Notes: a model not told the origin generated them from the sequence alone. Counted from the first letter of the stretch, positions 27,936 to 60,132 are shown. The stretch is 64,000 nt of DNA from an uncultured virus (IMG/VR IMGVR_UViG_2788500061_000001) (IMGVR_UViG_2788500061_000001); one strand, 5' to 3'. Translations and numbers: made by a program.

Positions 27936-27943
27936 CGGGCGCA

Positions 27944-30970: not shown

Positions 30971-31026
30971 GCGTATTTCAAATACTTGATTTTGGAATCC
31001 GGTGATGCCGGGAAAAGGAGAGAAAA

Positions 31027-31347: not shown

Positions 31348-31349
31348 TC

Positions 31350-31607: not shown

Positions 31608-31610
31608 CTG

Positions 31611-33005: not shown

Positions 33006-33031
33006 CCGATTCCAGAGTTGGAGGGCACTCT
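33006..33031 (+). promoter_or_regulatory. Putative late promoter
   Basis: TTGA-CCGAT-N15-CACTCT-N5-ATG(33037). Confidence 0.6.
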
Positions 33032-33036
33032 AACGG

Positions 33037-33417: not shown

Positions 33418-33430
33418 TCCGGGATCTTGC

Positions 33431-33455
33431 CCGATAGTAAAAAACCAGCCCAAAT
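33431..33455 (+). promoter_or_regulatory. Putative late promoter (head operon)
   Basis: TTGC-CCGAT-N14-CCAAAT-N6-ATG(33462). Confidence 0.6.
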
Positions 33456-33461
33456 GCAGGC

Positions 33462-34329
33462 ATGGAATTTACCCATCCCTGNCATATTATCAAAGCCGAA
33501 GAGAATTCCGGACGGCTNAAAGTTCTGATTCGAGCCTCCACTGAAGGAGAAGACCGGCACGGCGAGCGTGTCCTAAAGAGCGCGTTTGCAGACCCGGANA
33601 TGCAACGGTCNTTTTCCAGGGAAGGCTACTACGACTANAACCACATAACAGATATTCTGGACAAACAGATGAAAGGTGTCTCCGGCACCGAACTTGTGGA
33701 NCTGCAGAAGGCCAAAGCAAGNGCNATCATTGGATATCCNGATCCCGACAAGTCGTTGTTNGTCGGGGATGATGGCGTNTATTCNCAGGGGTATCTATTC
33801 GCAGANAATGAATACGTCCAGGAAATCCGCAAGGGTCTTGAATCCGGCTGGTCNGGCTGGGGNGCTTCGATCTCNGGTTTTGCGAGCCCNNNGGACCTGG
33901 AAGGCAACACTTTCAAGAAGATTGNTCCTGAANAAGATCGCAATCGCCCCGCTCCAGGAAGTCATCAATCCGGATACAAGNGTTCAACTGGCCAAGTCNA
34001 ANCTCNTTCAGNTGATNAAGGCCGGTGAGGACTACTACACCGAAGAGCAGACGGGCGCAACCGACACCTTGCCCGATACAGAAATCCGTGACCAGATAAT
34101 TCAGGATCTACAGATGCAGGTCGGTCGGCTCACGCGATTGGTCCTTTCGCAACCTTCCATGCAGGAAGCTATCGCTCGTGAAGTGGTGGATGCGATCAAA
34201 TGCGGCACCCTGCCCCTGCAACACGATCCCATAGTCAGCTTTTTGACCGATAGCTTTGGCTTTGATACGGATTTAGCCAAGCAAGTCGCCAACGGCGTAC
34301 TGCTAACAGGTAACTTCGGAGCGGCATAG
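33462..34329 (+). CDS. Prohead protease (apparent frameshift near 33925 in N-rich sequence)
   Basis: ASTEGEDRHGERV...YDxNH...ASIxG, then KIAIAPLQEVINPDT in the adjacent frame; precedes scaffold and capsid. Confidence 0.75.
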
Positions 34330-34365
34330 CTCCTGAGAGTCCAGAGAAGAGGAGACACTGAACTT

Positions 34366-35052
34366 ATGAAATGGGCAGAAGAATTAATTGGAAAGATTCA
34401 ATCTTTAAGCGTTCGCAAAGCGGACGATCCGACCTCCGGCGATAAAGGCGGCGGATCCATCGAGGATCTGGCAATGGAGGCCGCGAACAAAATGGAGAAC
34501 GGCGAAATTGAACCGGATGCAGATTCCGCTAAGGACTTCCTGGTATCTAACGGTGTCGACGAATCTGAGGCCGGAGATTTTGCCAGAGATATCATAGATG
34601 CCTATTTCTCCGAGGATGATCCAAAATCCGGAGAAGGCGACGGGTCCGGGGACAAAGGAGACGTCAACAAGTCAAAGGATCCGACCCAGGATGAAGCCAA
34701 TTCGGACCAGATCCCCATTCAGAAGTCCATGGAGCGAATCGAAGAGGCCCTGAGTGTTCTCGGTTATGGCCTTACTCATATCCTGGACGAGCTGCAGGCA
34801 ACCCGCAAGGAGAATGCTGTCCTGAAAAGCCAGGTGGATGAATACCTCGGCAAGCCAGTTCGCAAGAGTACGGTTGAGCAAGTGGCCCCCGGTGCTGGCC
34901 AGGAGAGCGGCAGATCCACCTCCGAAACAAAGACCCTGATTCTGAAAGGAGTCCAGGCCGGTGAGCTTACCACTGAAGACATGACTGCCTTCGAAGTGGG
35001 TCGAGTGCTCACCGACAAAGCAAAGCATTACATCAATAAGGCAGGAGCCTGA
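34366..35052 (+). CDS. Scaffold protein
   Basis: Acidic/coiled-coil; between protease and capsid; multiple xKS/xKA sites. Confidence 0.7.
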   Translation: MKWAEELIGKIQSLSVRKADDPTSGDKGGGSIEDLAMEAANKMENGEIEPDADSAKDFLVSNGVDESEAGDFARDIIDAYFSEDDPKSGEGDGSGDKGDVNKSKDPTQDEANSDQIPIQKSMERIEEALSVLGYGLTHILDELQATRKENAVLKSQVDEYLGKPVRKSTVEQVAPGAGQESGRSTSETKTLILKGVQAGELTTEDMTAFEVGRVLTDKAKHYINKAGA

Positions 35053-35084
35053 TCCCTGAAAGCGCGACAACAGAGAGGATAGAA

Positions 35085-36506
35085 ATGAGAGAACTTAACG
35101 AACTACTGGAGATTAAGAAGGCCTTTGAGGCCAATCCGGGGATTACTGATGTGGCCGAGCTCTTTGACGGCCCGGCGCTCAGTATGCAATACATCGATGG
35201 AACCATGTCTTCCATCGTTGCAAGCGATGTTGACTTCGCTTTCCTGAATAAGCTGCCGAAACGATCGGTGGACCAGACCATTGCCGAATACAACAAAATG
35301 AAGAGCCACGGAGACTCTCCGTATCGCACTTCTTTCGTTGGGCAATCAGAGGATCCCCACTTCGCTGACGCATACCTGAAAAGAAAGTTCGATGAAATGG
35401 CGTACCTTTCTGAAGGGTTCACATATAACCGCGTAATTGCCCGAACCAGGAACACAAACGACCCGGAAATGGTATCGTCCACGTCCGCCATGCGCCGGAT
35501 GCTCACTTCCCTGTCCCGGGGCCTCTGGAATGGTGACCGTGACGCTCTATCCGTTGAAATGGACGGAATCGTTAAGAAGGTCTCTTCACTGGGCTCGGAC
35601 TTCGTTTACGATTGTCGTGGCCAGCTACCCGGTGCCGACGTAATCCAGCATTTTGCAGCTCAGATCCGAAGTAGATATTTCGGACTGGCCAACGAATTCC
35701 ACATGGCCGTCGGTTCCAAGAACCTGTTTGATCAGGCAGACCTCGGTGATAAGCAGTATATTTTCCTGGATGGCCAGAATGCCGGTGCAGGTCTGTATGC
35801 CAGCCGAGTTGTGGAGGGCCAGAAGGCTTCCTTCGCACTGAACAACAAGATTCAGTATGTACCGGATCTGTGGATCGATGAAAGCAATTTCGGCGTTCCA
35901 ATGGACTATGACCGGTCCACCGACTCCGTGGTCGAAAAGGCCGTAGGTGAAGCTCCTCCGGATACCCCTGCTCTGGCGGTCGCTGCTCAGGCTCCGTCCG
36001 TACCCGGCTCCAAATGGGAGGCTGGAGACGTTGGCACCGTAGCATACCGTGTGGCCGCTGTAGGCCCTAAAGGTGCTTCTCAGGCCACAACCTCACAATC
36101 CGCCACAGTAGCCGCAAATGGAGCCGTGGAACTGACCATCACTCCGGCTGCAGGAGGCAACTTCGCAGAGGCATTCCTGATCTTCCGTGAGACAGCTCCT
36201 GGCAACGGAGATTTCCGCAAGATTGCCCGTGTAAAGCGTGCAACCAGCGGTGACACTACCTTTGTGGACGTAAATGAGACAATCCCCGGAACCAGCGTCG
36301 GTGTCCTGGGCGACTTCAATAGCCGGTCCACTTCCGACGAAACCAGAACCATGGTTCTGAGTGAGCTTATGAGCCCGCTCAAAACCACATTCCCTCCGGG
36401 AGTTGGCGGCCTGCGACTGAACGTTGGCATGGTGGAGTATTTCACAACCATCCAACTCTTCGCCGAAGAGAAGTTCGTCGTATTCAAGAACATGCCAGTT
36501 ATCTAA
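35085..36506 (+). CDS. Major capsid protein
   Basis: 473 aa after protease/scaffold; IKKAF maturation-like site; followed by terminator. Confidence 0.85.
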   Translation: MRELNELLEIKKAFEANPGITDVAELFDGPALSMQYIDGTMSSIVASDVDFAFLNKLPKRSVDQTIAEYNKMKSHGDSPYRTSFVGQSEDPHFADAYLKRKFDEMAYLSEGFTYNRVIARTRNTNDPEMVSSTSAMRRMLTSLSRGLWNGDRDALSVEMDGIVKKVSSLGSDFVYDCRGQLPGADVIQHFAAQIRSRYFGLANEFHMAVGSKNLFDQADLGDKQYIFLDGQNAGAGLYASRVVEGQKASFALNNKIQYVPDLWIDESNFGVPMDYDRSTDSVVEKAVGEAPPDTPALAVAAQAPSVPGSKWEAGDVGTVAYRVAAVGPKGASQATTSQSATVAANGAVELTITPAAGGNFAEAFLIFRETAPGNGDFRKIARVKRATSGDTTFVDVNETIPGTSVGVLGDFNSRSTSDETRTMVLSELMSPLKTTFPPGVGGLRLNVGMVEYFTTIQLFAEEKFVVFKNMPVI

Positions 36507-37356: not shown

Positions 37357-38058
37357 ATGAAAACCCTCCAAAAGACTCTGAATTTCATTTTCCAGTGTCT
37401 CTGGTTTGCCATCAAGGGATTGATTCCCAGAAAGATCGGCGCCGGAGATAAGATCATTCATTATGCCCCCAGACTCGTCGTTCAGTTATTACTGTCCTAT
37501 CTCGTAGGCGGTCCACGTCTCTTCCTGTTCGGAGATTCGAACAGTGAGGTAATGTCCCGCTTGAAAGTGATGATCGGTTTTGACGTGGTTGCCATTTCTG
37601 GCGGTATCGGTGGATCGAGGTTGGACCAATGGGTCGATTTCTTTGAAACATGGATCGGGAAACTCGTCCTATGGCTTGTTGGCGATGCTGAAACGGTCTG
37701 CAATCTTGGCGGCAACAATGCTCTCCATCGAAAGATGAAAACGGTTCCGGAATCTGCCCGTGAACTTCATGCGATTCGCCCGGATGCCTGGATCATCTTG
37801 ATACCGCCTATTCACTTCGATTTCTTTTCCTTTCTGGTTCAACCGAAACAACTCAGAAAGGATATCGAAAAAATCAACAAGGAACTACGCAAAGAGTACA
37901 AACCTCGAGTTATCGATCCAGAGCCCCTGGTGGACAAAGACGAGAACGGCGAACCGGATCCAGGTTCACTGAAGGATGCGGTACATTATGCAGACCGGCT
38001 TGTCTTTGAGATTCAGACTGTAATCGAGCTTACTGCCCTGGCCGAAGTGGACCGATAA
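37357..38058 (+). CDS. SGNH/GDSL hydrolase
   Basis: LFGDSN (block I), GIGG (II), LGGNN (III), DAVH (V). Confidence 0.85.
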   Translation: MKTLQKTLNFIFQCLWFAIKGLIPRKIGAGDKIIHYAPRLVVQLLLSYLVGGPRLFLFGDSNSEVMSRLKVMIGFDVVAISGGIGGSRLDQWVDFFETWIGKLVLWLVGDAETVCNLGGNNALHRKMKTVPESARELHAIRPDAWIILIPPIHFDFFSFLVQPKQLRKDIEKINKELRKEYKPRVIDPEPLVDKDENGEPDPGSLKDAVHYADRLVFEIQTVIELTALAEVDR

Positions 38059-38082: not shown

Positions 38083-41000
38083 ATGCGTCGGAAATTCCTG
38101 CAAGTGTTGAAAGAACGGATGGGGGCTGCCATGGCAGGCCCCCGCTCCAGAGCGCACCTCATTCGCAAGGTCATCACAAACCGGCGGGGCCACAAGCAAA
38201 CAGTATACGTCAGGCCAGACAAGGCCGGAAGCCCACCTTCTGCCCCTCAAAAACCATCACAGTCTTCATCCTCTGTCGCGGAGGCTCGAAAGGAGTTTCA
38301 AAGAGCCGATGCCGAATTCAGTGCAGCGCTGGAAGAGGCCTATGGCAAGCAAGCGGGAGACAAGCGGTATTCTCCTGGTCCCCATCCACCTGCAGTAGAG
38401 GCTGCAAAGAAGAAACGGATGGAGGCCCAGAAGAAGTGGCATGCGGCACAAGACCAGACTCGGGCTTCAGGAAAGGATCCTCTATCCGGGGCACCTGTTG
38501 AATCCGAGCAGTCAGAAGCCTCAAACAAAGAGAAGCCGGAGCCGAGTGATGGGGAGGACAAGACAGCATCCGATTCCCCGGCAACCGCCCTCTCCTTCGT
38601 TGGTCATGATCAGATCCGGGAGCTGTCTCAGTACACAGACAAGCGCAACTACGATAGAAAGACTATCGATGGCATCAAGGCCAGCATCTTGCGGAATGGT
38701 TACAATCCGGCCTTCCCTCTCCAGGTCGATACAGACAACGGAACCTACAATATCGTTTCGGGGCACCACCGATTCACAGCGGTAAAGGAACTGGTCAGCG
38801 AAGGGAAACTACCGGACAACTTTCAGATTCCCGTCATCGTAAAGCAGTATGGAAGCAAAGGCGACCGACTTATGGCGCAAATGTCGGAGAATGTTCGCCG
38901 CACTGTCAACCCATTGGACGAGGCCCGGGCCATCGGAGAGTTAACCGAGATGGGCCACAGTGTTTCAGAAATCGCAGAAAAGACCGGAATGAATCCGGGA
39001 ACTGTCCGGCGACGCAAAGCATTGACCGGGCTGCACAGTGACCTTCAAAAGCTGTTCTAGAAAAAGGACCGAAGTCTGCCCGTAGGTATCGCGGAAGCGA
39101 TCGGAACTCATGGCCTGAATCCAGACGGGTCTAAAAACGCAACCATCCAGAACAAGGCCCACCGATTCTACAATGCCAACCGACATCGTGGATTCGGAGC
39201 TGCTGAAGTGATTAGCTACATGCAGGAGCTCAAGTCGCAGAACTCCGATCAAATGTGGTCCGTAGATGAAACCCGTACGGAAGCCGAGAAGCAAGCCGTC
39301 CAGAGCCTCGGTTCAGAAGAAAAGGCAAAGCGGAACACAGCGCAAATAGACAAATTCCTGGGTAGCGTACAGAATTCGTTTCAGCGCCTTCTCGGGGACT
39401 CTATTAGCTCTCTAAACGAATCTACTCTCAAAGAACTCTCTAACAGCCTCCTGGCCACGGAAGGCGAGTCCGGGTTTCGCTCAAAAATGGATCAGCTATC
39501 GACACTGATGAACGACCTGGAGACAGTCAAGCGTACTCTCGAGCAGAATTTCAATAAGATCAAAGAGGAATCATCGAACCATAGTCTCGCATTCGCCCGA
39601 TCAATGGCAGTGATTGAAGCCAGCCAGGACGCCATTCATGTTCTAAAGTCGGCCCATAGAGAGACACGGGTAATCGAAAAAAGCAGATTTCTGGAAGTCC
39701 TCAAGGCCAAAGGCAAATCGGCGAGGAATCGGGCTCACCTCGTGCGCAAGGTAATAACCAACAAGAAGGGGCACAAACAGACAGTTTACGTGAACCCCAA
39801 TGAAACCAACCAGGCTCAGGCGGAACAAATCGGGGAGTTCACTCTGAAACGCAGAGGGAAATTCATCGATGTCCTCGGGAATCTGTTCAAAGAATCCGGC
39901 CTGTACATGGCCTTGAATTCTCTAACCGGCAAGAAGGGGAAGCCTATCGAAGGAGAAAACGATCAGGGTAGCATTGGTGCTACTTACCCTTACTCAGTCG
40001 CCAACTATAAAAAGATCCGGGAGCAGTTGCTGGGAGTTTCCCGGGGGCCTGCCGACAACCGAGAGCAGGATTTGAGCCCTGCGGATGTCAGGAATATACC
40101 GGATGAGATAGAGTCGGAAGTCAAGGGAGATAAGGCACGATCCCTCTGGAAGCGAGCGTCCGAGCGATTCCCGAACCTGGATGCCGGAACTTTTGTGGAT
40201 CATCTGGTTGAGTATTTGCTCCACCGTGACAAATACGAAGACCTTTTTTCGCAACAGAGCCTCTTCCAGGAGCCATCGGAAACTCCGGCGAACTCTGCAA
40301 AGGACTCGGGCTCGAAAGGAACGGTTAGCACTCCGAACCCAGCACCGTTCCGGAAAGACTTGCTTCGCTTCATCCATGAGCAATGGTCCGAATCGATCCA
40401 GAGCGATCCTCGTTCAATAGAGAAGGCTGAAGAAAGGTATAATGCAGCAGAACGAGACCTTGAAGAGTCCGCCCGGGAAGCCTACGGGAATCGTTCCAGC
40501 GACATGCTGGAATACGCAAACTCCAGGGTGCATCCTCCAGAAGTTCAGGAAGACCTGGATCAACGCAACGAAGCTCGGGTTTCTCTCCTGGAAACAAGGA
40601 AGGAGTCTCAGATTCGAGAATCCCGCATAAGGGCAAGCGTCGAAACAGGTAAAGCACGGGTCGGCGTTAAGACTCAGCATGCAATCAATGAAGAGGTCCG
40701 ACAGATCCTGAAATCTGTGCCATCGGAAAAGATGACCGAGGAGCAGAAGGAACTCCTTCGTCAGTACGAAGGCTGGGGCGGGCAGACCCGAAATGATAAA
40801 ACGGATTACTCCGGCAAGGGACTTCTTTATGAGTTCTATACTCCTGAGAAGGTCGTAAACAAGTCCTGGGAGCTATTGGAGAGATATATCCCCAAAGGGA
40901 GCAAGATTCTCGAACCCGCTGCCGGGACCGGACGATTCGCGGAGGGACGATCAGACTACAGTTTCGACATGCTGGAGGTAGACGGCACATCAAGCCAGAT

Positions 41001-44000
41001 TGCCGGTATTCTGCACCCGGATGCAAATGTCCGGAAGGGTCAATTCGAAGAGCTGTTCCTGGATAATCGGAACCGATCCAAGAAGCAATACGATGGTCCT
41101 CTGTACGATGCCGTGGTAACGAACCCGCCCTACGGCGAAATGGGAGGAAAATACAAGGCATCCGAAGGTCGAGGCTGGCAGCGCTATGAGGAATACTTCC
41201 TCCATCGCTCCCTCGACACCGTGAAGGAAGGCGGCATAGTTGCAATGGTCGTTCCTTCCAATTTTCTCCGAAAGGGGAAAACCAAAGCAAAGGAGAAGAT
41301 ATTCAACAAAGCAGAACTCCTGGAAGCCCACCGATTGCCGAATGGCGCTTTTGCTCATACGGACATCGGCACGGATCTGATCATCCTTAGAAAGAATACT
41401 ACGGAGCACAAAGACAATGCGATTGCCTTCGAGGATGAATACTTCAAGCGGAACCCGAATCATCTTCACGGAGAGGAGCACGAGACGACAGATCGCTGGG
41501 GCAAGCCAGACCTGCGGACAAAGGGCAATATTGATACCTTTCTCAATCATAGACCGGCGGCCCCCAAGGAAATGTCAAAAGCCCACAAGGATGCAATCTC
41601 CAGGGGATTGATCGGGAACCAGAACGCAAAGGGGAAGCACAAGGTAGCCAGTTCAAATCGGAAGACGGTTAAGAAGAAAGCCGTCCGAAATGCGACGAGG
41701 AAAACGAAGAATACGGCGAGAGAAAAGCAGAGTCCTCCCCCGAAGCTCCTGAATCAGGCGGAGTTCAATAGGAAATACGGGCTGAACTTCAGCGAATCGG
41801 ATGTAGAATTGCTGAAAAGTACCAATGCTCTCGGATACATTGATCCCCAGACGCCATTCGATCCGAAGTCGATGTCATTCCACAATGGCGGTGCAATGCC
41901 CGACTACCTGTATGCCACGGGCGATATTTATGAAAAGCTGAAGCAACTGGAATCGGACAGGGAAGAGATCATCGAGAAAGGTGGCCTGCAGCTATACCAG
42001 AAGCAGCGCCAGATGCTGGAAGATGCCATTCCGGAGCAAACCCCGCTGAAGGACGTCGTTCTGGATCCAATCGACCCTTTCTTCAAGACAGTCACCCTGG
42101 AAGACGGAAGTTCCCTTCTCGACCGGTTCAAGGAATGGGTCGGTGATCTGGACTACGAGACCTTTATGGACTACGCGGCCTCAGCCAGCGACGTTCGGGC
42201 TTACTGTGATGCCATACCTGTCCGGGGCAACAACAAGAGCCTGAATGAGAGAATCCGGCGAGAACGCCGGGAATTGGCAATGAAGCTGGCAGACAGGTTC
42301 GTCAAGGAATCCCTGGGTGAGGCCGAGCAGAGTCAGATCCAGCAGTCCTGGAATGAACGCTTCAACGCCTACGTTCAGGTGGATCCGGCGAAGGTGCCGA
42401 TTCCGATTGAGGGATTGAACGAAAAGTTCAAGGGTAAAGACTATGAATTGAGGGATGTCCAGCATCGATTCATTGCAAATTTCCTTTCAAAAGGCATCGG
42501 TTGCGCAGCCCACGAGGTGGGGCTGGGAAAAACCATGACCGGCATTATTGCCACAGTCTCCAATATGCAAATGGGACGGTCGAAGAGGCCTCTGTTCGTG
42601 GTCCCAACCTCGGTATTACCGAATTGGGAGGCCTCCGTTAAATCGCTTTATCCAAATCTCACGGTGAATACAATCGGCACCCCCGAACTGAATCAAATGA
42701 CCGAAGGCGGCAAGAAACTCGAGATCGAAGAAGGGTCGGTGACTGTAATGTCTTACGATGCGTTCCAGAGGATGGGCTTCAGCGAAGAGCGATTCAATGA
42801 ACTCACAAAAGACCTCCAGGATGCTCACAAGCCCTATGCAGAAGAACCGGCCACCAAGCGAGGGAAGGCAAAGAAAGAGGAGGAATATGAAGCCCTGGTA
42901 TCGAGAGCGAGAACGGGTACGTATAATGAAATACTATTCGACGAAGCGGGCTTTGACTCTCTGACCGTGGACGAAGCGCACAACTTCAACAATATCTTTG
43001 CTGACGTAAAACAGGAGAAGGATCAAGACACCGGGAAGGTCAAGACCCAGGCAAATGAATTCTCCGGTATCATTGGAGGGGCGACGAGCGACCGTGGGCT
43101 AAAAATGTGGCTGGCAGCCCAGCACGTGCTCAAGTCCAACGACAACCGCAATGTGATGATGCTCACAGCCACTCCCTTTACGAACAATCCGCTTCAGGTC
43201 TACTCCCTACTCTCCACGATGGCCAGGGAACGCCTCCAGAAGATGGGGATCTACAACGTAAAGGATTTCGTGGCGGCCTTTGTAGAGACTCAGACCGAAA
43301 AGGTTCTGGAGCCCAACGGAAAAATCAAAGAGAAACAGACGGTCCGCCGTTTCAAGAATGCCCATGCCTTTGCCTCGCTAATCAATGAATTCTTCGACCG
43401 AAAAACCGGAGAGGATGCGCATATCAAACGGCCGGACCTGGTAGAGAAGGAGATCGTTCTTCCTTCTAACAAGGAAATGGATCAGATCCGCCAGAGCCTG
43501 GAGAACTATTACGATATGGCTTTCCACCCCGATCCTGATGAGCGAGATCCCTCCGCTGCACTAAGGTCCATGACCATGCAGCAAAACCTGAATATCAGTC
43601 CGGCCCTCGTAAACGACTATCAATTCAACGATAACCGACAGGATTTCGTCGAACGCAGTCCCAAAATGAAATTTGTGGCCAAATCCGCTGCAGAATACTA
43701 CAAACGGATGAAGGAAGCCCAGGGGAATGCTCCGGGCCAGATCATCTTTCTACCCCGAGGGGTTGAGTATTTCAATGAAGTGAAGGCTTACATGGTTTCC
43801 CAGGGAATCCCGGAGGATGCCATCGAGATCATGACTCCCAAGGAGAAAGGGAAAAAGGCCAGGAGCAAGGAAGCAAAGGCGAAGGGGCAAAGTCGATTCG
43901 AAGAAATCAAGTTCGACTTCAATGATCCGAATGGCAAAACGAAAATCATAATTGGCTCCGATACGATCCAGGAAGGAGTATCCCTCCAGAAAAATACGGG

Positions 44001-44859
44001 GGTCATGTATAACTGCAGCCTGGCATGGAATCCGACATCGAACGAACAAAAAAAGGGCCGTGGATGGCGCCAGGGGAACACCCAGGAGCGTTGCCACATG
44101 TTTTACCCGGTCATGGAGAACTCCGTCGACACAAAACTGTACCAGAAGCATGCCGAAAAGGTTTCCCGAATCAACGATATCTTTAAGGCAACTGGATCCC
44201 CTTTCATCGAAACCACGGACATCAATCCTGATGAGCTGAAATACGAGATCGTGACCGACCCGGAGAAAAAGGCCAGGCTGGTTGCATCGGAAGATGAGAC
44301 GCAGCGTCTGGCCGCCATCAAGGATAAGACCACCGACCGGAACATTCTCCTATCAACCCTGAATCGAGCAGAAAATCTGGACCGACGCATTAGGGATGCG
44401 GAAGAGTCACTGAAGCGGTCACAGCGCTGGGCCGAAATGTACGGCAAGAACTCAACACTTGGTCGATTCCATGCGGAGGATGTAAACCGCATCAAATCAA
44501 GACTCAGTCGATTGAAGCGCGACAAAGAAGAGCATGAGACAATGATGCAGCAGAAGGGCATGACCGTGGAGAAGCTCCGTTCTCAGGCGGAGGCTCTGGA
44601 AAACGAGATCGCTCAAATGAAAGCAGATTCAACCAAAAAGAAGGAAGAGCTTGAATCAGAACTGGTAGAGCGCTACCGACGAGAAAAGGAAGAATATGAG
44701 AAGAGCCGTCCCAACAAGTCGATCGACCAGATGGTGGATGAGCATGTCTCAAAGCTGGTTGACTCTTCCCTCGGCAAGTCGGTATATAAGAGTCGAATCT
44801 ACGAAATAATACGGGGAGGGAGAATGCATGAACGCAGACGTAAAGCAGCAGCTCTTTGA
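38083..44859 (+). CDS. darB: DarB-like polyvalent protein: tag, ParB-N/HTH, N6-adenine MTase and SNF2 helicase; one in-frame TAG at 39058-39060
   Basis: IVSGHHRF/SENVRR (ParB); EFYTP, LEPAAGTG, NPPY (MTase); HEVGLGKT, VDEAH, LTATP, QKKGRGWRQGN (SF2). ORFs 38083 and 39208 share one frame and the gap between them is open. Confidence 0.85.
38149..38217 (+). repeat. Cargo-tag motif copy 1
   Basis: Encodes RAHLIRKVITNRRGHKQTVYVRP. Confidence 0.9.
39730..39798 (+). repeat. Cargo-tag motif copy 2
   Basis: Encodes RAHLVRKVITNKKGHKQTVYVNP. Confidence 0.9.
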
Positions 44860-45034
44860 AGCCGTGGAGGCAGACTTCCCGCACCTGGCAAGTCTGGGGC
44901 CGGACAGGGTCTACGATTCCCTATCCTCAATTTGTATGCAGGAGGGGAAGCCAGTAACGGTTGAACAAATGCTCCAATACGCGGTGATTCTGGACAACGA
45001 CCTGGAGATGGACGATCTACAGACCGGCGACTGA
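44828..45034 (+). CDS. Small acidic protein
   Basis: 68 aa; GGAGG SD inside the darB 3' end. Confidence 0.65.
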   Translation: MNADVKQQLFEAVEADFPHLASLGPDRVYDSLSSICMQEGKPVTVEQMLQYAVILDNDLEMDDLQTGD

Positions 45035-45046
45035 ATCGACAGATGC

Positions 45047-45071
45047 CCGATAGCCGTTTTCCGGCTATAAC
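45047..45071 (+). promoter_or_regulatory. Putative late promoter (zeta)
   Basis: CCGAT-N14-TATAAC-N6-ATG(45078). Confidence 0.7.
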
Positions 45072-45077
45072 GGGTCC

Positions 45078-46496
45078 ATGAATGGCATTCATATTCTCAA
45101 GGCGGCCAACAGAGCGCATCTGGTCCGCAAAGTCATTACGAATAAGAAAGGCCGCCGCCAGACCGTTTACGTAAACCCGGAACAGGAAAAGTCGAAAGAA
45201 AAAGGTCGAGGCCAGTCTGGTAAGGCATCCGAAAAAAAGGCCGAGGACAAGGAAGCCGGATCCTCCCGCCCCGACCAGTCCGCCCATAACAAAGAATCTC
45301 AACCGAGGAACAACGCGCCCGAGAAGAGCGGACAGAAAAAAGAGGGCACCGGGAAGAAACCGAAAGAACGTAAGTACAAAGACCCAGGGGTTAATCAGAT
45401 TTGGGCTCCTGCCGATGTTGAGGCAGCCAAGGCCCAAGCATTCTACAACATTGTAACCGACCCAGACATCGGTGATCCGATACCTCGCCCGGGTCGCTGG
45501 AATGAGGGGATTCCCGAGGGGATGCCCTCCGAAACCTGGGAAGAGCACTTCACCGGCCATCCAGATGAAGGCGGAAAGCCAAAGGAGGGCCGGGAGTTTC
45601 TCCACAACTTGATCAAACAGAGATTCCTCGAAGGGAAACCATCGGTGCCGTCCGGCGAAAAACCCGTTGCCATATTGATGATGGGCGGCCCGGCATCCGG
45701 GAAGTCGACCATGGTTAAGTCCGCTGGCCTGGAGAGTATGGAGGATTTCGTCGTCGCTGATGCTGATATAGTGAAGAACATGATTCCGGAATATCGAGTC
45801 GGGGTCAACAATCGCCTGAAACAGGCCGCATATATGGCACATGAGGAGTCCAGCTATCTGGTGAAGCAGATCAGAGAAGAAGCCATCAATACCCGGAAGA
45901 ACCTGGTTATCGATGGGACAGGTTCAAAGACAGCATCCTACGAAAAGAACATCCAGAAGCTCCGGGACCAGGGATACGAAATCAAGCTTATGATGGCTGA
46001 CACCCCGATGGATGTTGCTCTGAATCGCGCCAAACAGCGAGCGAGAAAAACCGGCCGCTACGTCCCAGACGGTGTTCTGAAAGGTGCTTATGCCGGTATC
46101 CCGAGCGGGTTCCAGAAGATCGCAGAGATGGTTGATTCTGCAGCCATCTATGATACAAACGTGAAGCTGGGAGAGCCTTCACGGCTTGTCTATACAAAGA
46201 CGAATGCCGCTGAAACCATCCATGACTCCGAGCATTATTCGAAGTTCCAGAGTAGGATCGGAAAGTCCTGGCTGTTTCAGATCATCAAGTCCAGACTCTC
46301 CCGTGAACAACGAATTGCTGTAACGAAAGGAGGAGAAGATATGCAGGAGAAGAAGCAAAAGCGAACCGATGACGAGCTACTACAGGCAATGGCCCGCGAC
46401 GAATGGGACTTCACCGAAGAAGAAATGAAACGAATTGAGGCCATGGAAGACGTGGCGGACGAAGGGGAAGGAGTGGAAATGGTAGTGGATGACTGA
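45078..46496 (+). CDS. Zeta-toxin family P-loop kinase with N-terminal cargo tag and acidic C-tail
   Basis: MGGPASGKST, VADADIVK, LVIDGT, RARKTGRYVP. Confidence 0.85.
   Translation: MNGIHILKAANRAHLVRKVITNKKGRRQTVYVNPEQEKSKEKGRGQSGKASEKKAEDKEAGSSRPDQSAHNKESQPRNNAPEKSGQKKEGTGKKPKERKYKDPGVNQIWAPADVEAAKAQAFYNIVTDPDIGDPIPRPGRWNEGIPEGMPSETWEEHFTGHPDEGGKPKEGREFLHNLIKQRFLEGKPSVPSGEKPVAILMMGGPASGKSTMVKSAGLESMEDFVVADADIVKNMIPEYRVGVNNRLKQAAYMAHEESSYLVKQIREEAINTRKNLVIDGTGSKTASYEKNIQKLRDQGYEIKLMMADTPMDVALNRAKQRARKTGRYVPDGVLKGAYAGIPSGFQKIAEMVDSAAIYDTNVKLGEPSRLVYTKTNAAETIHDSEHYSKFQSRIGKSWLFQIIKSRLSREQRIAVTKGGEDMQEKKQKRTDDELLQAMARDEWDFTEEEMKRIEAMEDVADEGEGVEMVVDD
45111..45179 (+). repeat. Cargo-tag motif copy 3
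   Basis: Encodes RAHLVRKVITNKKGRRQTVYVNP. Confidence 0.9.
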
Positions 46497-46516
46497 ACCC
46501 ACTGCAATGGATTTAT

Positions 46517-46541
46517 CCGCTTGAATGATGGAATAGGTTAT
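46517..46541 (+). promoter_or_regulatory. Degenerate late promoter
   Basis: CCGCT-N14-GGTTAT-N5-ATG(46547). Confidence 0.4.
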
Positions 46542-46546
46542 CCGGC

Positions 46547-47989
46547 ATGTTTGGTCTTGAAAGCCTTATTGACATACTGAAAGCTCGCGGCGCAGCTCTT
46601 GGTGAGATCCACCATTGGGCCAATGGCGATTATATGAAAACTCCGCAGGGCTGGAAGGAAGTCAAGAAAGACGTCCGGAAGCATCTGGACAAGCTCACAA
46701 AACGTATGGCTCCCGCAGACGAGAAGGCCCGCGAACACCGCTTCGCCATGGAGGACCTTAAGTCCAGGATTGACGGGATCAAGAGCAAACTCAGCGAGCA
46801 CCCCGATTCAGATTACTACAAAAATGAGCTCAAAGAGGCGGAGAAGCGCCTGATATTCCATAGCGTAAAGGCCGAACAAGTTGGAGGACGTGCCCGACGC
46901 CGTGCCGAGGATTATTTGGATCAGGTCCGCCAGTATCTAAAGGACCATCACGAAACCCAAATAAACGCCAAATATGCTGACGCACTGAAGAAGCTCGATG
47001 AGCGGATGGCTGCACTTGAAGAAGGTGGGGACCGTTACAATCAAATAATGGAGAACCATCGAAAGCTGGTAGGCTCTGAATACGAGGATGAGGACGATGC
47101 TGAGTCAGCAGCAGAAGATGAGATAGAGATCGAAAAAGAGATTATCGAGGATAAGCAAACGGACCTGCACGACCTGATCTGGGAGAAAGTTGGGAACCGT
47201 CATGATCAGATCGATGAACGTTTAGACAAATTGCTGGAAGACAGTGAAGAGGATACCCGCGAAGCATTTGAAACTCGTCTCGATGACTTCGAGGACATCA
47301 AGACCCGCTACCCAACCAGCATAGACCGGGACCCAGTTACTCCGATAAGCAAGGTAAGGGAGAGAATCAGGAAGAACCTCGGTTTTCGCAAGCGGTTGGC
47401 CGACCGATTGAATCTGAAATCCAACCTGGGCCGGATGCTCGCAGTATTCAAAGCCGGAAACCGGCAGGGTCTTGTTAAGAAGGTCATCACAAATCAGGCT
47501 GGGCACCGGCAGACGGTCTGGATTCGGCCGGACGAAAGCCCCGGCCCTCGCCCCGTAAAAAAGGATAGTGGCCCATCCTCCAAAAAACCCGGTGCAGGCT
47601 CAGTAAAGCGCACAATGGCGCCCCAGCGCGGCGGAATGCCGTCCAAGAAGCCCATGGCCGCAAAACCCGCCGAAGATCATGCTGTTGTCCAGCAGCGGCA
47701 TGAGGATTTTGAAAAGCGCGCCCAGGAGCAGCGAAAACGAAAAGGACCTAATGCAAGCATTGATGCCGCCGAAGCTGGCGATATAGTGCAAATCACCAAC
47801 CCGAAATCGAGAGTCCGCAACCAAATAGGAAAAGTGGTTCAGAAACTGGAGGACGGATTGAAGGTCATGATGGCCAACGGGATTTTCCAGGATTTCACTT
47901 TCGATGAACTGTCCTTCGCGAAGTCCCGGCCGCTCGGGTTTCGACCGGATGGAGTTCAAATCCTGAAAGCCCGTATCGAGTTGAACTGA
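46547..47989 (+). CDS. Coiled-coil putative internal virion protein with cargo tag and C-terminal KOW/SH3-like domain
   Basis: ILKA...VFKA...FAKS...ILKA sites; GDIVQITN...IGKVVQK. Confidence 0.75.
   Translation: MFGLESLIDILKARGAALGEIHHWANGDYMKTPQGWKEVKKDVRKHLDKLTKRMAPADEKAREHRFAMEDLKSRIDGIKSKLSEHPDSDYYKNELKEAEKRLIFHSVKAEQVGGRARRRAEDYLDQVRQYLKDHHETQINAKYADALKKLDERMAALEEGGDRYNQIMENHRKLVGSEYEDEDDAESAAEDEIEIEKEIIEDKQTDLHDLIWEKVGNRHDQIDERLDKLLEDSEEDTREAFETRLDDFEDIKTRYPTSIDRDPVTPISKVRERIRKNLGFRKRLADRLNLKSNLGRMLAVFKAGNRQGLVKKVITNQAGHRQTVWIRPDESPGPRPVKKDSGPSSKKPGAGSVKRTMAPQRGGMPSKKPMAAKPAEDHAVVQQRHEDFEKRAQEQRKRKGPNASIDAAEAGDIVQITNPKSRVRNQIGKVVQKLEDGLKVMMANGIFQDFTFDELSFAKSRPLGFRPDGVQILKARIELN
47462..47530 (+). 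repeat. Cargo-tag motif copy 4
   Basis: Encodes RQGLVKKVITNQAGHRQTVWIRP. Confidence 0.85.
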
Positions 47990-48990: not shown

Positions 48991-49201
48991 GCAGAAGGCG
49001 GAGCAGGCGCAGGACAAACCCAGGGAACCTGCGAAGCAAACAGCGAAGCGGCGCAAATACCCGCCCATGGAGCAATTCCTGACGGACCTTGAAAAGAAAA
49101 AAGGTCCGATCCCGGCCAAAGTAAAGGAAGTATTCCGCGCCCGTTGCGGATCCCGCAAGGACTTCGAAGCCGTATGGGCCGAACTCTGGAGAGGTAAGTA
49201 A
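48980..49201 (+). CDS. Small basic protein preceding sheath
   Basis: AAGGAG SD before MASEQK; TAATG coupling to sheath. Confidence 0.65.
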   Translation: MASEQKAEQAQDKPREPAKQTAKRRKYPPMEQFLTDLEKKKGPIPAKVKEVFRARCGSRKDFEAVWAELWRGK

Positions 49202-50976
49202 TGCCAACAAGAACAGTAGAATTTTTGGGACGCGGATTCATTGTTCCAGGATCTTACTCCGCATTCCGCGCCAAACCACAGTCCGGCGGGATCTCTCCGG
49301 ACTTCAATACGCAAATACTAATCGGCGAAGCGAACAACGGCTGGAATGCTCTGGATACCAGCCTTCCCATGCTCAAGCGAGTGATGGAATTCACTTCCTT
49401 TGAGGAAGCCAAGCAAGTTCTGGTTTCCGGTCCGCTACTCGATGCCATCAAAGCTGCCTTCTCCCCTTCCAGGGATAGCAGGTTCGCCGGTGGTCCATTG
49501 CTTATTCGAGCACTGAATCTGGCGGTCAATACAAGGGCCTCCGCAAGTCTGGACAACACCGCTGCGTCCCAATACTCCGCTAAGTATGTTACTCCCGGTC
49601 CCCGGGGCAATGAATCGCGAATCAGGATCTCGGCTGCGGGCGATTCAGTAGAGGTCGGCGACTCCAACGGCATCCAATCCGCAACCGGCCTCGATGCCCA
49701 GGATATTACAATCACATACAGCGGAGATGCTACCACAGCAGAGCTTTCCTTTGATGGATCCAACCTTACAACAACTCTCACCGGCCAGACCGATGGGACC
49801 GAAAACCTTGATATTCCGGTCGATAGCGTTCCAACCCTGGCCGACCTGGCCGTCCGCATCAATTCGATGGCCGGTTACAATGCCGTTGTCGACAGCTCAC
49901 CGGATATTCTTACCAGAAACCTGGACCATGTAAGTGGAGTCGATGCCAAGGCAGGGGCCGTGGTCAAGGCTCTCCTTTATCGCCAGGAACAGGCATTATT
50001 CAATCTCGGAAACGTCGAATTGGAGATTACCGGAGCAAGGAAGCCCCTGGCTGACACCGTGGGATTCGTATACCTCTCGGGTGGCGCATCGACTGCAGCC
50101 CAGCCCACGGACTACACAGATGCAATCGATATGCTGGAGAAGGTGCGAGGCTTCTTCATCAATCTCTGTTCCACCAATCAAGGTGCCGGGGCGTATCTCA
50201 CGGATTTCATCATCAAGTCCAACGGACCGGAAGGAGCCGATGAACGATTCGGAGGATTCGGTGCTGACCGTACCGACGATTTCACTACCCGGTGCGACAA
50301 CGCAAAGCAGATCAACAGTGAGTATATGGTCTACGGCCTTTCCCCGGTAACTGTTCGAGGGGCAGACGGTATTGCCACAAAGACCTATGATGGATGGCTT
50401 CTGGCGGTAATCCACAATGCAATCAAAGCGTCCTCAAACATGCGGGAATCCGCCCTCTACAAGGATCTGAACATTGAAGATGCGCCGGAGATCCCTGGAA
50501 CCGGCGACATCCGCAGAGCCATCCGGTCCGGGGGCCTTGTTGTGGATCGCAAACCGAACAATGGCCCATTCAAGATCACCTCGGATGTCACCACCTATCA
50601 GGCAACAAATCAGATTCTCAACAAGGCTTCAACTACCTGCACGGCCCTCGCACTGAACAAAGACCTGAGAGAATCTCTTCAGGATGCATTTCTCGGTGAA
50701 GTACCAACCGATCCAGATGCCTTCGGAACAACTCTCACGGATTCAGACATTCGCACTTTCATCGAGCTGAAATTCGACCAGGACTACGTCCGGAACTTCG
50801 GCTGGCTAACCCGTAACGTTTATACCGGCCAGCCAGCCTGGAGACGCGACTTCCTTATCAGGCGCGACGGCAACGCAATCTACTTCGAGTTCCCGGACGG
50901 GAAGCTCGTCACGTCGCTCGATTACATTTTCAGTCTGCTCAATCTGGACGTTGTCCGGGGGAGCGCGCAATCATAA
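49201..50976 (+). CDS. Contractile tail sheath protein
   Basis: 591 aa; IVPGSYS N-terminus, PGPRGN, YLSGG, ITSDVTTY. Confidence 0.9.
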   Translation: MPTRTVEFLGRGFIVPGSYSAFRAKPQSGGISPDFNTQILIGEANNGWNALDTSLPMLKRVMEFTSFEEAKQVLVSGPLLDAIKAAFSPSRDSRFAGGPLLIRALNLAVNTRASASLDNTAASQYSAKYVTPGPRGNESRIRISAAGDSVEVGDSNGIQSATGLDAQDITITYSGDATTAELSFDGSNLTTTLTGQTDGTENLDIPVDSVPTLADLAVRINSMAGYNAVVDSSPDILTRNLDHVSGVDAKAGAVVKALLYRQEQALFNLGNVELEITGARKPLADTVGFVYLSGGASTAAQPTDYTDAIDMLEKVRGFFINLCSTNQGAGAYLTDFIIKSNGPEGADERFGGFGADRTDDFTTRCDNAKQINSEYMVYGLSPVTVRGADGIATKTYDGWLLAVIHNAIKASSNMRESALYKDLNIEDAPEIPGTGDIRRAIRSGGLVVDRKPNNGPFKITSDVTTYQATNQILNKASTTCTALALNKDLRESLQDAFLGEVPTDPDAFGTTLTDSDIRTFIELKFDQDYVRNFGWLTRNVYTGQPAWRRDFLIRRDGNAIYFEFPDGKLVTSLDYIFSLLNLDVVRGSAQS

Positions 50977-51004
50977 GGCCCTGTAGCCACTGGAGGAATA
51001 ATAA

Positions 51005-51439
51005 ATGCCAGCACCCAAACTTGAAAATCCAGAGGTCCTCACTGGCTGTGATGTAACCATCAAGATGAACGGATCCCCGGTCGGCTTCGGGAAGAACGTC
51101 GACATCGAAGAGAATGTAAACCAACAACCAGTGGAGGCCATCGGCTACTGGAAGCCACGGGGGTTCAAATCGACCCGCTGGGATGGGACCCTCTCCATGG
51201 AGTTTCACATCCTTACTAAAAGGGGAACCGAGGGCGTAATACCGATCGACACCAGTTCCCCGACGGCCGCTTCTGCTGGCTTCTTCATGGAGTTCAACGA
51301 AAAGTCCACTGGAAAGCGCGTGGCAACTGCAATCGGGCACATTAACACCAGGGGATTCAANATCTCCAACAATGANCTGTCTGGCCAACGNTGCCAGTTC
51401 GTCCTCCGAGATATCGACTACAAGGAAGGNTATAACTAA
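51005..51439 (+). CDS. Tail tube protein
   Basis: 144 aa right after sheath; VGFGKNVDIEE...PVEAIG. Confidence 0.85.
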   Translation: MPAPKLENPEVLTGCDVTIKMNGSPVGFGKNVDIEENVNQQPVEAIGYWKPRGFKSTRWDGTLSMEFHILTKRGTEGVIPIDTSSPTAASAGFFMEFNEKSTGKRVATAIGHINTRGFXISNNXLSGQXCQFVLRDIDYKEXYN

Positions 51440-52053
51440 TGCATCAGAACATTCTGAACCCAAAGCGTGACTTNACNATCANNGTCCAGGGCTNCACTCT
51501 GTTCGGNCTNATNCCGCTGCCCAAAGAAGAGTTGGCNATCGATCTNAATGTATCCCGNAGACTNGANGGNCANCCNCTNCAGAGNATNCCGAANCAGACN
51601 TATCAATACGTNNTGATGGCAGAAACCCTNAACNTTGCNATCCGNGAAAANCCNGANGCNCTGGCCAATCTNNCCGACTGGATGGACTTTCCAGACCCGG
51701 AATTCGTGACAGAGGCCTATGAGCAATACATCAAGAAGCAGTCCGAGTTCTATGCGGGGTTAAAAAAAAATAGTGGGGGAGGATCTACAGAAACACCTGT
51801 ACAACCCGNACGTAATGATGGACCTGTTCATCCTCAACCGGTACAAAACTCTCCCGTCCAGCCAGGGACTGGACAACCTGTATCCGGAACAGAAGTGGTT
51901 CCTGATCGCGGCGGAGTCCCTGCTGGGGGACATGTCCAGCATAACCAANCGAGCCCAGGCTTCCCTGCGTCTCCAAATGTTAGAGTCCCTCAAGGATCCC
52001 CTGGAAATCCTGCCGAAGGGAATGGCCAGCAGTATCTCCCGGGCGGGAATTGA
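51439..52053 (+). CDS. Tail assembly chaperone (gpG-like)
   Basis: After tube; A9 run at 51762-51770; many Ns. Confidence 0.7.
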   Translation: MHQNILNPKRDXXIXVQGXTLFXXXPLPKEELXIDXNVSXRXXXXXXQXXPXQXYQYXXMAETXNXXIXEXXXXLANXXDWMDFPDPEFVTEAYEQYIKKQSEFYAGLKKNSGGGSTETPVQPXRNDGPVHPQPVQNSPVQPGTGQPVSGTEVVPDRGGVPAGGHVQHNQXSPGFPASPNVRVPQGSPGNPAEGNGQQYLPGGN

Positions 52054-58500: not shown

Positions 58501-60132
58501 TCAGCCCCAGTCCCCTTCCGGGGCATTCTCTTCCTTGGAAGGGTCATAGTCCTCGAAATCGAATTCCTGTTGCTCCGAGGCTTCTGGCGGCATCCCCATG
58601 TCGCCCTCTGCGCCACCGGCAAGATTCTGCACAAGCTGAGCTCCAGATTGAATCCAGTTTGTATCCATGACGACGGCCCCGGCGTACTTGACCTGTTCGA
58701 ATTTATCGTCTGGTAGCCCGTAAATCTTCCGGAGCGCCTCTCCCACTGTCGGCATATCCCGTCGGGTCCGAACTTCATCCATCAGCTCGATGGACTTGAC
58801 CAGCTTTTCGTCCCTTTCCAGGCGCTTATCTTCATCTTCCTTCTCAACTCCATTGAAAACGAAAACCAGTGGTTCATACTTGTCGACGGTCTCCTTGATA
58901 TCGTTGCATACGTCTGCAAAATAGGATAGCATCGATTTCTTTGCCCTGGTCATTGCGGCATCTATCCGCCCATCCATGGATCCTTCAGACAGTCCCTGGC
59001 TTCCCATCAAGCGCAGGCCAAGCTCAGCCTGATCCATTCCATGGGCGGCCAGAGTAAAGGTGGTGACCCATTGCATCAGCTTTTCGAAGGCCATGTCGCT
59101 CAGGGTATTGAGGTTGGTGAACTTGAGATCCTGGGCCTCGGACGTAATCAAGGGGATCCGGTGATTGTTATTGTTCCCCGAGAACATGTTCTCCCATTGC
59201 ACCTGGAGATCATCGAGGACTTCCTGAGGCATATTCCCAGGAAGGTAGAGAAACCCTGGAGGCGGATTATTGGAGAACCGATCCCGATTAAACTTCAGGG
59301 CATTCATTGTGGCGATGATTTCCATTACGGAAACCTCTGCAGGAGAGAGCCCCGAGTTTCGGTACCGGACATCGCTCAACTCATTTTGGTGCCGCACAAT
59401 GATCTCTTCATCTGTGAAGGTTTCGACCACTGTATTGTTCACGATCTGCACCCACCGGGTCCGTGGGTCATTCTTGTATCCGGACTCAATTGTGGGGTAG
59501 ATAGTTGCGGGATCCAGATATTTGACTTCGACAACCTGACCCCTCCGATTCCGGACCAGATAGAAAGCCACACTGTCAATGGCTAAAGTGTCCCGGATCA
59601 TGAACTGGAAGACTGCATGAAAGCGATCCCGGTTCTGCCAGCCCTCCACCTTGTCGCCCATGAACTCAAAGAATTTCCTGGCATCCCGGATTAGCTCCTT
59701 GTCCCCATCCCCCGGTGATTTGTCCGGATCTTCCAGGTCGAAATCGAATCCCTCCTTCTCTCGGAAGGGCCGACCGAATTGGCCCAGGTCATCGATTCGA
59801 ACCTTGTGGATGGCGCCGACCAGAGTATTGGAATAGGATAGTTTCCGGAGGTCATTGAAAGAGGGGCGGTCAGGATTGCGGAGCCGGATTCCCTGGTTGA
59901 TCAGGCTTTGCTCTTCGGATGTAAAGACCGGCTTTTTCTCTTCCTGCTCCCTGGATTGGACACCGTGGAACATGGACTTGGCCAGGGCGTACATTCTGGA
60001 GTCCTTGAATTCCCGGATATCCTCCCGGGCGCGCTGAGCCTGCGACTGTCGATTCCGGGCAGCCCGGAGTCTCTTCTGGAGGTTCTTTTCGTAGTTCGGG
60101 CCTCTGGGTCGACCGGGCTTTCCGTTTGCCAT
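58501..60132 (-). CDS. Portal protein
   Basis: 543 aa; YLDPATI, GLSPAE, FSNNPPPGFLY, QWENMFSG...RIPLI, DMAFEK. Confidence 0.92.
   Translation of the reverse strand: MANGKPGRPRGPNYEKNLQKRLRAARNRQSQAQRAREDIREFKDSRMYALAKSMFHGVQSREQEEKKPVFTSEEQSLINQGIRLRNPDRPSFNDLRKLSYSNTLVGAIHKVRIDDLGQFGRPFREKEGFDFDLEDPDKSPGDGDKELIRDARKFFEFMGDKVEGWQNRDRFHAVFQFMIRDTLAIDSVAFYLVRNRRGQVVEVKYLDPATIYPTIESGYKNDPRTRWVQIVNNTVVETFTDEEIIVRHQNELSDVRYRNSGLSPAEVSVMEIIATMNALKFNRDRFSNNPPPGFLYLPGNMPQEVLDDLQVQWENMFSGNNNNHRIPLITSEAQDLKFTNLNTLSDMAFEKLMQWVTTFTLAAHGMDQAELGLRLMGSQGLSEGSMDGRIDAAMTRAKKSMLSYFADVCNDIKETVDKYEPLVFVFNGVEKEDEDKRLERDEKLVKSIELMDEVRTRRDMPTVGEALRKIYGLPDDKFEQVKYAGAVVMDTNWIQSGAQLVQNLAGGAEGDMGMPPEASEQQEFDFEDYDPSKEENAPEGDWG

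Follow-up and report, generated by a model that had tools for sequence, protein, structure and literature searches.

Packaged Phage Proteins and the Locus Analyzed

In bacteriophage T4 the unrelated proteins IPI-III and Alt, which are packaged and injected, share a short N-terminal leader that ends at a site of the prohead protease gp21 and is removed in the prohead (mentioned in PMC9024508 and PMC10052503). DarB of phage P1 owes its packaging to a signal at the N-terminus, by which a reporter is brought into capsids as well (PMC9024508); its authors report no consensus among Dar proteins. The P1 capsid protein is cut between E120 and S121. In giant phages (SPN3US gp245, phiKZ) many internal and ejection proteins are shortened by an N-terminal propeptide, cut off at a single short motif, and the protease also processes itself; 14 sites in nine substrates are reported (PMC10052503). 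Iyer et al. 2017 (PMC5512222) propose that polyvalent proteins are processed into separate units, with MuF or the portal as anchor and a built-in metallopeptidase as processor. The present work concerns a 64,000-base stretch from an uncultured virus (IMG/VR IMGVR_UViG_2788500061_000001), referred to below as the window. Within its positions 38,083 to 47,989 a ParB-DarB polyvalent protein, a zeta-toxin-domain kinase and a coiled-coil protein carry four copies of one basic peptide (the tag), each preceded by a putative head-protease site of the hydrophobic-x-Lys type (Table 1). A Leptospirales genome carries this region, which forms the head module of an LE1-like prophage.

The likeness to T4 lies in the short N-terminal leader that unrelated proteins share and that ends at a predicted prohead-protease site. 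However, the T4 site ends in Glu and is cut by a protease of the S77 family, whereas the sites described here are hydrophobic-x-Lys and the protease is S78-like; T4 also has no conserved basic peptide kept after the cut and no internal copies splitting precursors. The main cargo of the window is a homologue of P1 DarB, but the first 60 residues of the P1 protein have neither the tag nor any similarity, and here, unlike in P1, one recognizable tag is common to several cargo proteins and to hundreds of phage lineages. The giant-phage motif ends in Glu as well, most of the propeptides have 111-254 residues, and no shared retained tag is described in the part of PMC10052503 at hand. The tagged proteins and the polyvalent proteins of PMC5512222, as far as its available text goes, have the same repertoire (ParB, DarB-type methylase-helicase, zeta, InPase, ART, PBECR, RadC, LPD) and both include portal fusions; MuF and peptidase domains are, in contrast, missing from the tagged proteins (see below), and that text mentions neither the tag nor prohead-protease sites. 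The capsid protein is homologous to those of Herelleviridae (E 1.1e-10 to 3e-4), in which the K-S or K-A position is the start of the mature chain, and the protease is remotely related to the S78 protease of Bacillus phage SPG24, but the Herelleviridae entries concern the capsid only and no tagged cargo was found in the cultured relatives. In encapsulins, short shared cargo-loading peptides mark diverse enzymes for an HK97-fold shell; those are C-terminal, uncleaved and bind the shell protein, while the tag is N-terminal or internal and stands beside a protease site. What is new is a recognizable and widely conserved tag that none of the searched family libraries contains, together with the lineage-specific protease site paired with it and its internal copies, at which the head protease would split polyvalent proteins that have no peptidase of their own.

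The Tag Is Conserved as a Peptide

The four copies start at exactly the bases at which the first-pass annotation, made from the sequence without database searches, had placed a shared peptide. They form a motif of 24 residues with the strongly basic consensus L-V-K-K-V-I-T-N-K-x-G-H-K-Q-T-V-W-V-x-P (average charge of the 20-residue core, +5.2), followed by a Lys-, Pro- and Gln-rich stretch with few hydrophobic residues. The consensus of the wider search profile reads hydrophobic-L-K-A, a few residues, D/N-R-S/T-H/G/K and then L-V-K-K-V-I-T-N-K-x-G-H/K-K/R-Q-T-V-W/Y-V-R/K-P. The basic peptide probably forms a beta-hairpin. A degenerate DNA pattern for K-V-I-T-N matches four times in the whole 4,866,126-base genome, always in this region, while the reversed control pattern gives no forward and one reverse match. 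Any two copies have 56-84% of their residues but only 55-68% of their bases in common, and 9-15 of the 14-21 identical residues of a pair are encoded by different codons. This argues for selection on the peptide and not on the DNA.

Distribution of the Tag in Other Phages

A profile of the four tags (42 positions, including residues upstream of the tag) was searched against 1,835,955,588 cluster representatives and matched 203 proteins at E ≤ 1e-3, of which 19 at E ≤ 1e-10, with E values reaching 1e-39 to 1e-10. At a threshold of at least 25 bits, 154 copies were counted in 143 proteins from other genomes. Sixty-five of these copies fall in the N-terminal 45 residues. Two or three copies occur in each of eight proteins, and in multi-tag proteins a domain follows each tag. 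All ten matches that were looked up are metagenomic proteins.

The Pfam domain scan covered 149 of the 150 listed tag proteins (of the 203). A family was assigned to 57, leaving 92 without a known domain. The families include RadC (6), LPD1 (5), InPase (4), ART-PolyVal (3), methylase plus SNF2 (3), topoisomerase IB (3), SAM lyase (3) and zeta toxin (2); PBECR, 2′-5′ RNA ligase and lysozyme domains are also found among tagged proteins. The list of fused domains, which the first-pass annotation had proposed as a check, thus places the tag before polyvalent-protein effector domains in other phage proteins. A phage portal domain is present in 15 (12 of lambda type and three of Mu type), the distance from portal match to tag being 123-772 residues and the part that follows the tag 198-1240 residues. 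Neither MuF nor a polyvalent-type metallopeptidase was detected by Pfam in any of the 149.

Tagged genes cluster in head modules: locus L015 has six in tandem, L010 has five or six in the interval from terminase to portal, and in L011-L013 they follow the portal directly. In five metagenome loci a tagged gene lies beside a homologue of the protease of this phage. Within the host order the tag occurs in 9 of 156 genomes, including five of the six further genomes that belong to the host genus. The protease family is present in seven of these nine as well; the assemblies of the other two are 58% and 77% complete.

No family covering the tag was found in Pfam (E up to 10), PHROGs or PDB sequences, and no description of it in the literature searched (peptide strings, capsid targeting, injected proteins, polyvalent and ejection proteins). 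A language-model search with the tag gave no usable match. Residues 1-40 of the zeta protein, used as the query of a word-based search, gave only two near-identical proteins among four candidates. Megablast against cultured phages gave no match; by tblastn against the same phages the coiled-coil protein had none and the zeta protein matched in its zeta domain only. One portal-fusion protein had no relatives in the viral-contig scan. The five metagenome loci L054-L058 were dropped as false positives, their match being restricted to G-G-R-R-Q-T-V-W-V-N-P in an unrelated family of 617 aa.

In LE1-like phages some cargo leaders precede other short hairpin-like modules instead of the tag, as in the first 40 residues of the coiled-coil protein. 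The general design would thus be leader, site and small basic module, with the tag as its best-conserved form. Cargo proteins of two unrelated contigs, L015 (5810-9953) and L049 (3924-9292), both end in G-I-(K/R/E)-(I/V), possibly a second tag, and L010 14624-15383 opens with I-I-K-A followed by repeated basic, hairpin-like units K-G-x-hydrophobic-V-K-x-H-x-R, which are possibly a distant cousin of the tag.

Sites Preceding the Tag and a Probable Head Maturation Protease

A hydrophobic-x-K(A/E) site precedes each tag of the window, as noted in the first-pass annotation: VLKE, VLKA, ILKA and VFKA, at distances of 11, 7, 2 and 2 residues. Among 151 tags from other genomes, 92 have such a site no more than 18 residues upstream (61%, a figure biased upward because the first profile included upstream residues), as compared to 7.9% of random windows in the same proteins. 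The association depends on the head lineage. In loci that have this protease family, reading the printed sequences by eye, a K-type site stands at 12 of 15 tags (14 of 15 if K-E, or a hydrophobic residue only beside the Lys, is allowed), while in fusions to lambda- or Mu-type portals it stands at none of 16, where Y-x-L-L-S-E-A (L-S-E-A), F-A-D or F-E-D is found instead. The tag itself is unchanged across head lineages while the upstream site varies.

The protease in question is a protein of 288 residues with 29 homologues, mostly from Leptospira prophages. In 21 aligned sequences of the family H61 and S136 do not vary, 19 of 30 matches in a language-model search belong to Peptidase_S78 clusters, and hhalign pairs the protein with the head maturation protease of SPG24 (85% probability, E 6.3e-6), which itself matches PF04586 (2.8e-7). 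On these grounds we treat it as a remote S78-type prohead protease. Within the family the hydrophobic-x-Lys motif is conserved close to the N-terminus and at two places immediately following the catalytic domain.

The capsid protein has 32-41% identity with its counterparts in LE1-type Leptospira phages and about 24% with Herelleviridae capsids. Its single conserved site is preceded by a leader whose length differs between homologues and is present in all those examined, LE1 and SPG24 among them. Aligned to solved capsids, the site falls on K24-S25 of the 463-residue chain 5lii_P, and that Ser is the first residue of the 439-residue chain 9row_B, whose offset is exactly 24 residues. Gp6.1, the capsid protein of SPO1, has L-N-K-A in the same column. 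The proteins of PDB entries 5lii, 9row and 9vel are, we assume, capsid proteins of Herelleviridae phages. A side observation concerns L030 10478-13135 (LE1-0025), an 885-aa LE1 protein whose start resembles the predicted mature N-terminus of the LE1 capsid protein.

The K sites that the first-pass annotation had listed in the cargo and head proteins all exist, but no MuF protein was found, and the 464-aa candidate for it (31611-33005) has no site. Against shuffled sequences, hydrophobic-x-K-(S/A/G) sites are in excess in the scaffold of the window (7 seen, 1.6 expected) and in the protease fragment (4 and 0.8), modestly so in DarB (19 and 10.7) and zeta (7 and 3.3), and not in capsid (2 and 2.3) or portal (3 and 1.8), so that the head enrichment proposed earlier holds for scaffold and protease and fails for capsid and portal; the tail sheath has 5 against 1.9. 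Homologues, which are related to each other and not independent, gave 49 sites versus 11.9 expected in eight scaffolds (4.1-fold) and 54 versus 10.7 in eight proteases (5.0-fold), each significant on its own, and no enrichment in capsids (15 versus 12.1, 1.2-fold), a neighboring protein (9 versus 9.1, 1.0-fold) or sheaths (10 versus 8.3, 1.2-fold). Enrichment in scaffold and protease but not in capsid is what one would expect of a scaffold and a protease that are broken down and a capsid trimmed only once. A strict form of the site, picked after seeing the data, occurs in the first 22 residues of five of 79 ORFs of the contig, namely scaffold, capsid and the three cargo genes, against 45 of 1904 host ORFs (2.4%); the protease ORF, dropped from the set, has it too. 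Leader and site are shared by three of three cargo genes. The comparison supports the earlier proposal that the K site is a prohead-protease processing site, through the enrichment in scaffold and protease and the capsid alignment, while cleavage of the cargo is predicted.

Table 1. Features of the window discussed in the text, with positions counted from its first base.
Feature	Position	Strand	Remarks
Prohead protease gene (remote S78 type)	33462..34329	+	Garbled by N and a one-base artefact; intact, 288 aa, in contig L005
Acidic scaffold-like protein	34366..35052	+	Seven hydrophobic-x-K-(S/A/G) sites; pI 4.47, net charge -20
Major capsid protein	35085..36506	+	IKKA at 35112-35123; predicted cut between K12 and A13
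ParB-DarB polyvalent protein gene (ParB + N6-methylase + SNF2 helicase)	38083..44859	+	2258 codons, one TAG inside
VLKE leader end (residues 8-11), putative protease site before tag copy 1	38104..38115	+	ILKE/ILKD in homologues
Tag copy 1	38149..38223	+	ParB-DarB
In-frame TAG	39058..39060	+	GAG (Glu) in two related viral contigs
VLKA internal site before tag copy 2	39697..39708	+	From the sequence
Tag copy 2	39730..39804	+	Internal in ParB-DarB, between ParB part and methylase
Zeta-toxin-domain kinase gene	45078..46496	+	N-terminal leader, ILKA (45093-45104), tag; domain by Pfam
Tag copy 3	45111..45185	+	Zeta kinase
Coiled-coil protein gene	46547..47989	+	N-terminal ILKA and second hairpin-like module; internal VFKA (47444-47455) and tag
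Tag copy 4	47462..47536	+	Coiled-coil protein
Portal protein	58501..60132	-	No tag in this phage

Putative Cargo Genes of the Window

The domains ascribed to the tag-bearing proteins (ParB-DarB, with two tags, zeta kinase and coiled-coil protein) were confirmed by Pfam, PHROGs and BLASTP against P1 DarB. The ParB-like part has a weak Pfam match and a strong PHROG match; methylase and helicase regions match P1 DarB with E values of 2e-31, 3e-23 and 1e-10, and phrog_10089 with 4.3e-70. Two features by which polyvalent proteins are recognized were found in ParB-DarB, at least two unrelated effector domains joined in one frame and a position among virion and packaging genes. The zeta toxin domain matches PF06414 with 8.5e-33 and 113.9 bits (curated cut-off 22.3), and the coiled-coil protein has no Pfam family. 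In the window's four proteins Pfam detected no MuF or portal anchor and no zincin-like peptidase.

The first-pass annotation spoke of one ParB-DarB protein. Its shared tag and domains are borne out, but the TAG of Table 1 cuts the frame. Two related viral contigs have intact ORFs of 2258 and 2262 aa, and in two genomes of the same genus the frame is open over 2263 aa. Recoding of TAG was rejected as the cause, since reading it as Gln merges no genes generally and the relatives have GAG; the stop codon is therefore treated as a point mutation or an assembly error.

A late-promoter motif had been claimed for each of these genes. CCGATAR is indeed found 31 nt before the starts of ParB-DarB and zeta, but not before that of the coiled-coil gene. 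It occurs at 33431, 37325, 38052, 45047, 48183 and 54712, 31-32 nt before six late-gene starts of the plus strand that have no Shine-Dalgarno sequence, and may be a late promoter or activator site. Overall it is not enriched (19 seen, 14.8 expected), and a hairpin is formed by some of the copies only. We discarded the idea that an RNA hairpin is what the late genes have in common upstream, strong hairpins being present in only three of eight cases.

The coiled-coil protein starts (46547-46670) with a second leader-site module, I-L-K-A followed by G-E-I-H-H-W-A-N-G...G-W. The G-E-I-H-H-W module likewise opens a 1368-aa cargo protein of locus L021 (14348-18454), with looser variants in L024 and LE1. 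At its other end the coiled-coil protein has an ILKA five residues from the C-terminus. Several scaffold or cargo proteins end in this manner, with hydrophobic-hydrophobic-K-(A/S) plus 2-10 residues (window 47960-47989, L030 scaffold, LE1-0026, L021, L012/L013, L049 cargo), which may be a C-terminal trimming or docking motif.

Function of the Tag and Alternative Explanations

Conservation, domain fusions, gene contexts, site enrichment and the alignment to the mature capsid N-terminus are supported directly. We propose that the tagged proteins are packaged and injected effectors bearing a leader, a cut site and a retained basic tag, a reading that we consider evenly balanced between right and wrong. 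Each packed effector would carry a three-part cassette. A short amphipathic leader would end in hydrophobic-x-Lys and be cut by the head maturation protease between the Lys and A/S/G, and the 24-residue basic peptide and a Lys/Pro-rich flexible linker would follow. The same S78-type protease would trim the capsid N-terminus, shred the scaffold and cut itself, and internal cassettes would let it split multi-domain precursors such as ParB-DarB into effectors inside the prohead, leaving a tag at the new N-terminus of each mature effector. The likeliest task of the tag would be to hold cargo on a polyanion, initially the acidic scaffold and then the packaged DNA, with which the cargo would leave at infection. 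The constancy of the tag across head lineages, its presence on portal-tethered proteins and its charge point to a role kept after assembly and to a partner common to all tailed phages, for which packaged DNA is the obvious candidate. Such a role fits at least as well as one in targeting, for which the short leader is an equally good candidate by analogy with T4. That the proteins are packaged and cut at their sites, that the tag folds as a hairpin and what it binds are inferred from comparison of sequences. Of the tag-and-cleave loading system proposed in the first-pass annotation, the membership of the tagged proteins in the packaged polyvalent class and the location of their genes in head modules stand, while the tag itself is no more than a candidate for the targeting signal.

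Several observations weigh against this proposal. The putative polyanion or DNA binding is argued from the charge and constancy of the tag. In the large cargo proteins the excess of sites is modest (72 versus 53.1), at least one of them (VLKS in the helicase core) is unlikely to be cut, and the first ParB-DarB site has Glu and not A/S/G after the Lys. The Ala before the tag is conserved even without the Lys and may be part of the tag. The upward bias of the site-tag association, the relatedness of the homologues and the choice of the strict N-terminal pattern, all given above, count here too. No Pfam Peptidase_S78 match was obtained at E ≤ 1 for the 288-aa protease and 21 family members, nor any direct PDB match. 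In cultured phages (50,697 records) tblastn with a 30-residue tag gave only eight weak matches, all at E ≥ 2 and in a 103-aa hypothetical protein of Pseudomonas jumbo phages.

The tag might instead itself be the capsid-targeting sequence, binding scaffold, capsid interior or portal, the K site only removing the leader or separating domains. We hold this to be unlikely, although a precedent exists in the 30-residue N-terminal packaging signal of P1 DarB (PMC9024508). Unrelated proteins in one phage and tandem cargo arrays elsewhere have the tag in common, and the portal fusions could be the fused form of a tag-portal contact. The tag could also replace MuF, the usual head anchor of phage polyvalent proteins, but the absence of MuF fits the holding of cargo equally. 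What speaks against targeting is that the tag hardly changes among phages with lambda-type, Mu-type or other portals while scaffold and capsid diverge, that portal-fused proteins keep it yet need no targeting, that it lies downstream of the putative cut whereas the T4 signal is upstream and removed, and that P1 DarB has no such tag at its start. A role as protease exosite, marking the cut point and nothing later, seems to us quite improbable: capsid, scaffold and protease have no tag, yet the same motif is apparently where they are cut, the tag is kept where the upstream motif, and presumably the protease, differs, and some cargo leaders precede other hairpin-like modules. The exosite would nonetheless account for the short distance between site and tag in all four copies, for the frequency of sites before tags elsewhere and for the position of tags at domain borders in multi-tag proteins.

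LE1 relatives replicate as plasmids, and ParB and zeta domains are classic plasmid functions. The tagged proteins could thus be late cytoplasmic proteins (plasmid partition or addiction, host takeover) that are not packaged, the tag being a general nucleic-acid-binding peptide, as its basic nature and a ParA-like gene at 64.7-66.2 kb of the contig would allow. We give this a very slim chance, for the genes lie between those of capsid and sheath, ParB is fused to a homologue of DarB, a known packaged antirestriction protein, the tag is found on portal extensions and typical injected-effector domains, and the cargo proteins share their N-terminal site with capsid and scaffold. Finally, a four-residue site is low in information and the sheath of the window has its share of sites, as would be the case if the tag were due to chance, low complexity or a recent duplication scar and the K sites to helix composition. 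This hardly credible reading is largely refuted by the E values of the profile matches, by the different codons of most identical residues, by the confinement of the enrichment to scaffold and protease (eight homologues each, with none in the sheath homologues) and by the match of the capsid site to the mature N-terminus of a solved structure.

Genome Setting

The window corresponds to bases 1-64000 of a 75,035-base contig of a 4.87 Mb genome assembled in 20 contigs. Assemblies of Leptospiraceae and Leptonemataceae contain close relatives of the element, as do viral contigs 62.9 and 71.6 kb long. Baseplate, head, sheath, tail-fiber and portal genes occupy 27.9-60 kb, and ParB-DarB, like all tagged genes of the window, lies between the capsid gene and the sheath gene (49201-50976). 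The contig is a consensus of at least two mixed strains. The 143 N of the window, at sites of difference between two related viral contigs, fall within 12001-16000, 26001-36000 and 50001-52000 and none in 38083-47989. A merged extra base near 33920-33930 breaks the protease gene, and a programmed frameshift was ruled out there, the N at strain differences and the extra base indicating an assembly artefact.

Beyond the phage genes the contig (C1, 63812-75035) has ParA-like and RND-pump-like ORFs. The prophage may exist as a plasmid in the manner of LE1, or it may be integrated. A 580-aa ORF of the minus strand (1873-3615) has an LPD3 polyvalent-protein domain (6.4e-14) without tag, with a terminase-like gene nearby (6158-7870). 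Next to the cargo genes, at 37357-38058, lies the gene of a 233-aa protein whose N-terminal part includes a hydrophobic stretch and whose match to GDSL hydrolases is weak (E 0.0047); it adjoins cargo genes also in L021 and L028 and could be a packaging helper. Small Cys-x-x-Cys ORFs between cargo and protease genes (L045 2065-2313, L049 10435-10659) may resemble zinc fingers of the Mu Com type.

Significance

Injected proteins decide the first minutes of infection through antirestriction, anti-defense and host takeover. They are hard to recognize from sequence, and the known packaging signals (T4, P1) are phage-specific and have no consensus. Here one recognizable peptide marks such proteins in more than 200 clusters and comes with a testable rule for the head-protease cut. 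If the proposed reading is true, it predicts the sets of injected proteins of uncultured phages, explains how polyvalent proteins without a built-in peptidase are split, and provides a compact cassette for loading capsids. More tentatively, and with more doubt than confidence on our part, the tag may be a universal and portable address label of tailed phages, independent of head lineage, that keeps any protein on the capsid DNA and delivers it to the host along with that DNA, while a lineage-specific site frees the effectors. In that case a single small profile would enumerate what uncultured phages inject, and chosen proteins could be loaded into heads by means of the cassette.

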